Shown here: in pieces, positions 12,442-13,610 of the stretch
How positions within the stretch are numbered: position 1 is the stretch's first letter
Layout: the number at the start of each line of letters is the position of its first letter
NCBI GenBank assembly: GCA_012295275.1
Contig: CM022679.1
Coordinates: 5,890,001 to 5,954,000 of the forward strand
Direction: 5' to 3'
Source: Chrysomallon squamiferum
Taxonomy: Eukaryota > Animalia > Mollusca
DNA: 64,000 bases
Notes under the pieces: generated by a model
Told to the model about the DNA's origin: nothing
Seen by the model: only the letters and a program-made list of their open reading frames with translations
The model's database searches: none
Translations under genes and position numbers: made by a program

Positions 12442-13126
12442 TAATTTAAGGGATTTAAAAAAAAAAATGATTTAGATACACATACACACACATATATATA
12501 CATATATGGAAGAAAATGTGTAAATGTTTTTTTATTTTATTTTTGTGTGACTTGCAGCATGCAGAAAGTTCTTGATAGGTTAAAGAAATTAAATAATTTG
12601 TTCAGGCATATTGCATTCTTTTCTAAAAAATATAATTTAAAAATATGCACAAATAACTTGCAACTAAGGGAAGATTTAATTTAACAAAACTTTGCACTTA
12701 AATATATCAAATTTAAAATTAACTGAAAGTGGAATATTTCAAAAATTATATAATATTTTTTGCTGTGAGTACTTTTCCAAATATAATTATCATAAATATT
12801 TACTACAGTATTCTAACCAGTGAGTATAAATAACAATTTTGTTTTGAAAAGCATCTACCTGGACTTTTGATTTATTAATGTTTCTTCATTAGCTATTCAG
12901 TTTATAATATGTCTATAACATCTTAATTATTAACATGCTTGATTAATGTTCACTATATTAAAACACTTCTGATAGTTAAAAATATTATCAGTGTTTAATT
13001 TCATGTCACCTTATACTAATATAGTGCAAACTTTAAAATACATTTTAAAGTGCACATACTTATATAATCATACAGAATCAGTAGCAAGTATAAAGATCAT
13101 GCAAAATGTGCAATACCTACCTATTT

Positions 13127-13258
13127 TCATGGGCGTCTGCCTCCTTCAAATGGCAGTTGCCGTACATCCTGTTGTCGAGGGTTTGGCCTATAGCCACATC
13201 CCTCTATTGGTAAACCATCTTTTCCTAGAGGACATGGTGCATCTAGTCCAGGGAGACC
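13127..13258 (-). CDS. C-terminal NC exon [47 protein letters not shown] (exon probably ends at 13121)
   Basis: attctag acceptor, TGA at 13129-13127, TAG/gtaggt donor 6 nt further on; MACIT motif. Confidence 0.9.
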
Positions 13259-13526
13259 CTAGAATGCAGGAACATGCACAGGCATAATAAAGATAGACTA
13301 TGTAACAAACTAATGAAACTAAGGTCATATATAAAAAGAAAACACAAAGAAAAAAGTTAATATTGTCACAAACAAAAATGAATGACACCTAGAAATAATA
13401 ATTGTGTTAAAACCAAAAATATGAAATCTGAAGGTCATGCATATTGGGCAGCATAAATGGACATCACATCAAGTCAGTTGTACTGCATCCAAGGTGAAGG
13501 TCGTTCATGCCTAAAAATCAAGTTAC

Positions 13527-13610
13527 CTGATTTGGTATACTCCATCCACAGTTTGGTAATGGCAATCCATCAGGACCTATTGGACATGGTGCATCAAGAC
13601 CAGGACTGCC
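13527..13610 (-). CDS. C-terminal NC exon [29 protein letters not shown]
   Basis: CTAAC branch motifs, atcacag / gtaact, 84 nt, MACIT C-terminal motif. Confidence 0.92.

Follow-up and report, generated by a model that had tools for sequence, protein, structure and literature searches.

The minus strand of the 64-kb stretch of DNA analysed here (the window) carries a gene with 29 candidate coding exons (Table 1) that is, judged by its sequence, an orthologue of the MACIT collagens (collagen XIII/XXIII/XXV/COL-99 family). Two of the three MACIT features used by Tu et al. were found in the window itself: an interrupted triple helix, in which a run of Gly-X-Y exons between 48055 and 17872 is broken by non-collagenous interruptions, and a C-terminal motif with two spaced Cys residues, present in both exon A and exon B. 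N-terminal and membrane-anchor exons were not found in the 64-kb window, and the third feature, membrane topology, rests on the Gigantopelta aegis orthologue, in which a hydrophobic stretch at about residues 19–43 was recognized by eye. The interrupted triple helix is also seen in this orthologue, with PF01391 detected in four stretches. The four RefSeq isoforms of this orthologue (XP_041363375-8, named collagen alpha-1(XIII)/(XXIII) chain-like) mapped exon by exon onto the window, with 290 of 328 residues identical over the 14 exons that have a clear counterpart, a sum that leaves out 15 of the 29 listed exons. On this evidence, the animal is likely a gastropod close to Gigantopelta. Exon B was identical to the Gigantopelta isoforms at 41 of 43 residues, and a word-index search with B returned XP_041363376 (95%) as the sole match among longer proteins, one of ten candidates. 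Matches to the motif also included Limulus and insect proteins named CG42342-like. All four Gigantopelta models run E-D-B and thus use D and B of the window gene but, unlike it, contain neither A nor C.

Table 1 Features of the minus-strand collagen gene, in the order of its transcription
Feature	Position	Strand	Description
MACIT gene body in window	48055-6084	-	29 candidate coding exons
Exon E	19345-19259	-	87 nt; Cys-x-Cys interruption also in named gastropod and bivalve proteins
Exon C	18052-17999	-	54-nt collagen exon, first of the upstream tandem pair; joined to B in RNA run X1
Exon D	17925-17872	-	54-nt collagen exon, second of the pair; joined to A (run X4) and B (runs X2, X3)
Exon A	13610-13527	-	C-terminal motif exon, Trp type; 84 nt, AG/GT borders, 28 codons without stop
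A-B intron	13526-13259	-	268 nt; GCATG at 13510, 13440, 13277
Exon B	13258-13121	-	C-terminal motif exon, Tyr type; 138 nt, of which 43 codons precede a TGA stop (13129-13127)
B read-through into intron	13120-12860	-	X2 record 6, one contig; ends 11 nt past AATAAA at 12876-12871
Exon T, shared last exon	6084-5965	-	first 120 nt, as in RNA, end not fixed; from loose contig ends in X1, X3, X4

The initial annotation, made from the sequence alone, had placed two exons encoding the signature motif 268 nt apart, and both were recovered on the minus strand at those places. They are homologous and adjacent and share the same 5′ phase (phase 0). Over codons 1–23, A and B agree at 16 of 23 residues and, in nucleotides, at 45 of 69 positions, and both Cys residues are present in each, with eight codons showing synonymous differences only, in agreement with the earlier statement that the Cys residues and the core of the motif had been kept while synonymous sites diverged. 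The same two Cys residues were invariant in 49 of 49 aligned motif rows. The different endings of the two exons, open in A and closed by its own stop in B, also proved to be as described. The A form of the protein ends ...WSIPNQG-stop, its final Gly and stop being supplied by T, and the B form ends ...GGRRP-stop, in which case T is 3′ UTR. The donor of exon B lies 6 nt 3′ of the B stop codon, and the GCATG at 13277 ends 14 nt upstream of exon B. No third copy of the motif was found in a six-frame search of the window. Pfam returned no families for exon A or exon B, a PDB sequence search with exon B gave no matches, and an ESM Atlas search returned chordate collagen clusters and one bacterial cluster only. 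An AlphaFold model of B built on the 49-row alignment was of low confidence (mean pLDDT 60.9, pTM 0.25).

To follow the use of these exons, contigs of four RNA runs belonging to a single study (X1–X4; depth 3–22), in which rare forms are lost, were aligned to 12460-14480 and their loose ends were then matched to the window; the D-to-T, E-to-C and E-to-D joints fall outside this aligned stretch. A single X4 contig of depth 3.5 ran from D (17872) through A to T (6084), with A correctly spliced at both ends, and X3 contained D joined to B and B to T. In X1, C (17999) was joined to B and B to T, both D and A being skipped, and another X1 contig held exon A unspliced with its downstream intron. X2 joined D to B at depth 22 and continued for 156 more letters, which probably run into T; the match of an A-run in X2 record 7 falls where exon T has its A-run, consistent with a B–T junction in X2. 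In the same contig, 139 upstream letters equal D + E exactly, although their length alone would also allow C + D. Thus B was seen in three of the four runs, whereas A was spliced in one and unspliced in another, and each occurred in spliced RNA without the other (A in X4; B in X1, X2 and X3).

These contigs supplied most of the junctions that the initial annotation had proposed to count: 17872 was joined to A (X4) and to B (X2 and X3), 17999 to B (X1), 13527 to 6084 (X4) and 13121 to 6084 (X1 and X3). The RNA end at the A donor in X4 matched the window from 6084, bearing out the prediction that A needs the GGC-TAA exon at this position. Expression of only one exon, or constant joining of A to B, had been named as outcomes contrary to the proposed layout, and neither agrees with RNA in which each exon is spliced alone. 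Of the claim that the layout is mutually exclusive, the use of each exon without the other therefore stood, while strict exclusivity is a matter of inference from low-depth contigs, with A alone represented by one contig. No A-to-B joint occurred in any of the four runs (the joint table was empty, for contigs of low depth), from which we infer that A and B are never joined. The B read-through contig of X2 in addition points to a likely intronic polyadenylation site near 12860, which would give the B form a second 3′ UTR.

The same tandem arrangement was found outside the window. In a scan of metagenome contigs, 182 stretches were confirmed and 80 loci were kept from them, and four of these contained an A-type exon followed by a B-type exon (L016, L041, L011 and L058). 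L011 and L058 are near copies of each other, with exon A cut by the contig start in both, so that L016, L041 and L011/L058 likely represent three other animals. In these loci the first copy is of Trp type with its donor after codon 28, that is, a 28-codon A with an open donor, and the second carries [IV][EK]GCGY and an R/Q-P-stop ending. GT follows the B stop at 7, 2 and 8 nt in L016, L041 and L011, respectively (L058 ends too soon); the B types across animals thus share the Tyr, their own stop and a donor 2–8 nt after it. The A–B introns of the other animals are 562–1096 nt long. Both copies are therefore conserved across species in L016, L041, L011 and L058. In 26 of the other loci, upstream collagen runs into the motif without a break (arthropod-like genes or transcripts); a further 46 have one stand-alone exon, and 4 are unclear. 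A cluster look-up of ten fragments put a name to just one, a nematode. In eight of the 46 stand-alone loci the second copy was absent over at least 5 kb of downstream sequence, and all eight exons were of Trp type, so the A/B pair is not universal. The Cys-x-Cys of exon E is common to the window, Gigantopelta, Mya arenaria and L056, whereas L016 and L041 have a plain 36-nt exon at that place; because they are without it, L016 and L041 likely lie outside gastropods and bivalves, with loss of E as a possible alternative.

A bivalve-type motif exon (L056:638, L071:305 and P0168 from Mya arenaria) combines the length and open donor of A with Tyr and B-like residues, and in L056 no second motif copy was present within 2.9 kb downstream. 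An intronless open frame of 587 codons at L045:5664, on a 15.7-kb contig, covers most of a MACIT; L022 and L038 resemble it but could be transcripts. Several distinct stand-alone motif exons with tails such as WKIAPH, WKMTRH, WKLPPV and AKSARH (many loci among L005-L080) recur across one contig series and may represent several MACIT paralogues in one invertebrate group.

Exons C and D form a second alternative pair, behaving like A/B. They are separated by a 73-nt intron that contains two GCATG, and the pair is also present in L041, where the two exons are 85 nt apart, and absent from L016.

Comparison of same-type exons with those of the window gave pS of 0.73–0.99 and pN of 0.10–0.18, which, together with the occurrence of the same pair elsewhere, supports the earlier proposal of an old duplication with both copies under selection. 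A exons of different animals are identical at 20–21 of 23 residues and A and B within one genome at 15–16 of 23; window B matches other B exons at 17 of 23 residues and other animals' A exons likewise at 17 of 23. Trees, from which the truncated L011 A was left out, placed the A types with Limulus and Ixodes and the B types together, with weak support over 28 columns (71/73 for the B group and 49/0 for the A group); the bivalve exon and L001, a mite-like single exon, were placed on the B side. AU tests rejected pairing of A with B within the genome at p 0.035 for the window and at p 0.0002 for L016 but not for L041 (p 0.099). Limulus ends GCGWTLPN, resembling the CGWSIPN of A, and Trp occupies that place in most of 113 HMMER hits, for which reason A is likely the ancestral type. 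One old duplication appears to be the best reading of the pairs, resting more on their common layout than on the tree.

The intron sequences were examined for signals that could govern the choice between the copies. GCATG occurs three times in the A–B intron against 0.4 expected (Poisson p 0.008), twice in the C–D intron against 0.11 expected (p 0.006) and seven times in L041 against 1.1 expected; in L016 (p 0.25) and L011 (p 0.065) its excess fell short of significance. The 9-mer ATGCATGAC is common to three A–B introns, and across the gene GCATG was counted 63 times on the sense and 31 times on the antisense strand. According to the position rule for Fox-1, (U)GCAUG represses an exon when located upstream and enhances it when located downstream (PMC2777236). 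An Rbfox protein in the A–B intron, where the motifs lie downstream of A, would favour A, and one at the motif in the B acceptor region would hinder B; one further GCATG lies downstream of B, where Rbfox would favour B. A simple Rbfox on/off switch predicts the combinations C-A and D-B. D-B was seen most often, together with D-A and C-B and not C-A, and the presence of D-A and C-B means that factors other than Rbfox must act. On the strength of these motifs, the chances that Rbfox takes part in the A/B choice are about even. Pairing of docking and selector RNA elements was searched in 23 region pairs from four animals with eight shuffles each, and none was clearly better than the shuffles; two pairings that narrowly exceeded the best shuffle (D-downstream with T-upstream in the window, and one across exon A in L041) did not recur in other animals. 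A distant branch point near the A donor (CTGAC at 13477) was rejected, as several AG lie between it and the B acceptor.

Taken together, the D-A, A-T, D-B, C-B and B-T junctions and the same layout in other animals were directly observed, and A and B likely work as a mutually exclusive pair, exchanging a Trp-type for a Tyr-type tail, probably by cell type and perhaps through Rbfox-type GCAUG motifs. In the spliced RNA each of the tandem motif exons is flanked by T and by a preceding collagen exon (D, or C in the case of B), so that the protein would end in either a short Trp-type tail (A) or a longer Tyr-type tail (B). Both mRNAs would escape nonsense-mediated decay (NMD), the stop being in the last exon in the A form and 6 nt from the last junction in the B form. 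Both tails would keep the Cys–Cys loop and, as a conjecture, would change the surface at the tip of the triple helix.

Independent cassette behaviour of A and B, in which an A+B form with a doubled motif or a form skipping both would also be made at real levels, appears quite improbable. An A+B product would be in frame, as the initial annotation had foreseen, with its stop 6 nt from the last junction; under the 50-nt rule NMD is therefore unlikely to enforce exclusion by removing it. At 268 nt the intron is of sufficient length for splicing, the docking and selector duplexes did not clearly beat the shuffles, and cassette skipping is extensive in MACIT genes (PMC4678570, PMC12669723). Against this, the A-to-B joint was missing from all four runs, none of 180 proteins compared contained two motifs, and the A-type transcripts in L046 and L066 have one motif each. 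An unlikely reading of a different kind, which accepts the alternative use as real, is that the snail and the other animals duplicated the exon independently and that the Tyr-type copies converged. It draws on the weak tree support, the equal distance of window B from other A and B exons, the mixed character of the Mya exon (28 codons and open like A, with B-like residues), a separate vertebrate duplication of the neighbouring region (PMC8373072 supplement), by which this region would duplicate repeatedly, and a window A–B pS of 0.61, below the A–A pS between species. With A/T at 19 and 20 of the 23 third positions in the two window exons, so low a value is to be expected, and convergence would also have to account for the same order in all pairs, the 28-codon A, the [IV][EK]GCGY and R/Q-P-stop signatures, the donor just past the stop, and the rejection of within-genome pairing in two of three AU tests.

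That A is a decaying or leaky leftover and B alone matters seems very improbable. B predominates in the RNA runs and is present in all four Gigantopelta models, while A was spliced in a single run; yet A is the more conserved copy, with 20–21 of 23 residues retained and synonymous sites saturated, matches the arthropod type and was correctly spliced at both ends in X4. An assembly artefact or uncollapsed haplotype duplication can be practically dismissed: nothing was found in its favour, the copies have only 45 of 69 nt in common, RNA uses both with shared flanking exons, the unspliced contig spans A and its downstream intron, and the layout recurs in other animals. A further run, X5, which may be the window's own source, contains a fraction of 0.97 of the sampled words of 12900-13900.

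The MACIT collagens described in PMC4678570 (human COL13A1, COL23A1 and COL25A1; C. elegans col-99; Drosophila CG42342) resemble the window gene in their interrupted Gly-X-Y ectodomain, two-Cys C-terminal motif and heavy alternative splicing; the window gene differs from them, as far as the available text of that paper goes, in having the whole motif exon in two versions. In that text the C-terminal region (last 34 residues) is the most conserved part of MACITs and its role is stated as unknown, all splice variants of collagen XIII keep the conserved C-terminal peptide, and the phrase 'mutually exclusive' has no occurrence (PMC4678570). Cassette skipping is described as frequent in the family (PMC12669723). 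The present genes place MACIT in gastropods and bivalves, whereas the survey of Tu et al. 2015, in its available text, reported none in Mollusca or Annelida (PMC4678570).

The nearest parallel is in the supplement of PMC8373072, which contains tandem duplicated exon events in human COL13A1 (event 49) and COL25A1 (event 50), with exons of 29 and 26 residues dated to jawed vertebrates; collagens are unmentioned in what is available of its main text. The human exons close the last collagen stretch, and both end inside the first half of the motif; by eye one of them resembles snail D and the other snail C (PMC8373072). They stop mid-motif and share the second Cys and the Trp, in contrast to the snail pair, which swaps the entire motif and tail; compared with snail C/D, they have different exon borders and the two types in the opposite order (PMC8373072). 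Because borders and order differ, the human and snail pairs are likely separate, parallel events.

Homologous C-terminal swaps like that of A/B are known more broadly: 77 of 236 human tandem duplicated exon events replace one C-terminal region with a homologous one (PMC9741552). Rbfox regulates the exclusive exons of egl-15 and FGFR2 (PMC2777236), a control that for A/B is suggested by motifs. Unlike the systems in the available parts of these two papers, A and B are both internal and joined to one last exon, and one of them has its own stop. The literature covered, which excludes most subscription papers, contained nothing on a swap of the entire motif, on duplication of the C-terminal motif exon or on a MACIT from molluscs. 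The locus is ordinary as a splicing mechanism and belongs with the tandem duplicated exons, among which C-terminal swaps are already known; it is notable for swapping the whole MACIT signature motif, for its conservation and for the vertebrate parallel, the latter suggesting that this end of the gene gained alternative exons repeatedly.

A broader scenario, less likely than not, is that one duplication before the gastropod–bivalve split, perhaps ancestral to molluscs and annelids, created an Rbfox switch of the whole tip between nerve/muscle and other tissues, and that a switch covering these last 60 residues arose independently in jawed vertebrates. If this is true, the MACIT tip would be a tunable binding site, and the differences between A and B (Trp versus Tyr, Leu-Pro versus Ile/Val-Glu/Lys) would mark specificity residues. 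Human MACIT members have been linked to congenital myasthenia and cranial nerve disorders (PMC7848082, PMC12669723). A conserved natural swap shows which positions of the motif may vary and which may not, and A and B are ready pairs for work on disulfide pattern, helix capping and partner binding. The gene likely switches its tails between cell types, offering natural variants for probing the role of the tail.

Alternative exons were also noted in the ectodomain. For the first interruption, 41077-41033 + 40590-40561 and 39618-39544 (all minus strand) make up an alternative set, the former used in Gigantopelta isoform X2 and the latter in isoforms X1, X3 and X4, and all three exons are 100% identical in the window. 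All four Gigantopelta models lack a block of about nine collagen exons in 31411-22796 (minus strand), several of which are flanked by GCATG; L016 has counterparts of three of these exons, one of them 12 of 12 identical, and the block may define long and short forms of the ectodomain. A 204-nt basic non-collagenous exon at 33526-33323 (minus strand), used in Gigantopelta, adjoins collagen exons 36395-36225 and 34516-34472 (minus strand), both absent from the Gigantopelta models, and the two arrangements are possibly another alternative choice.
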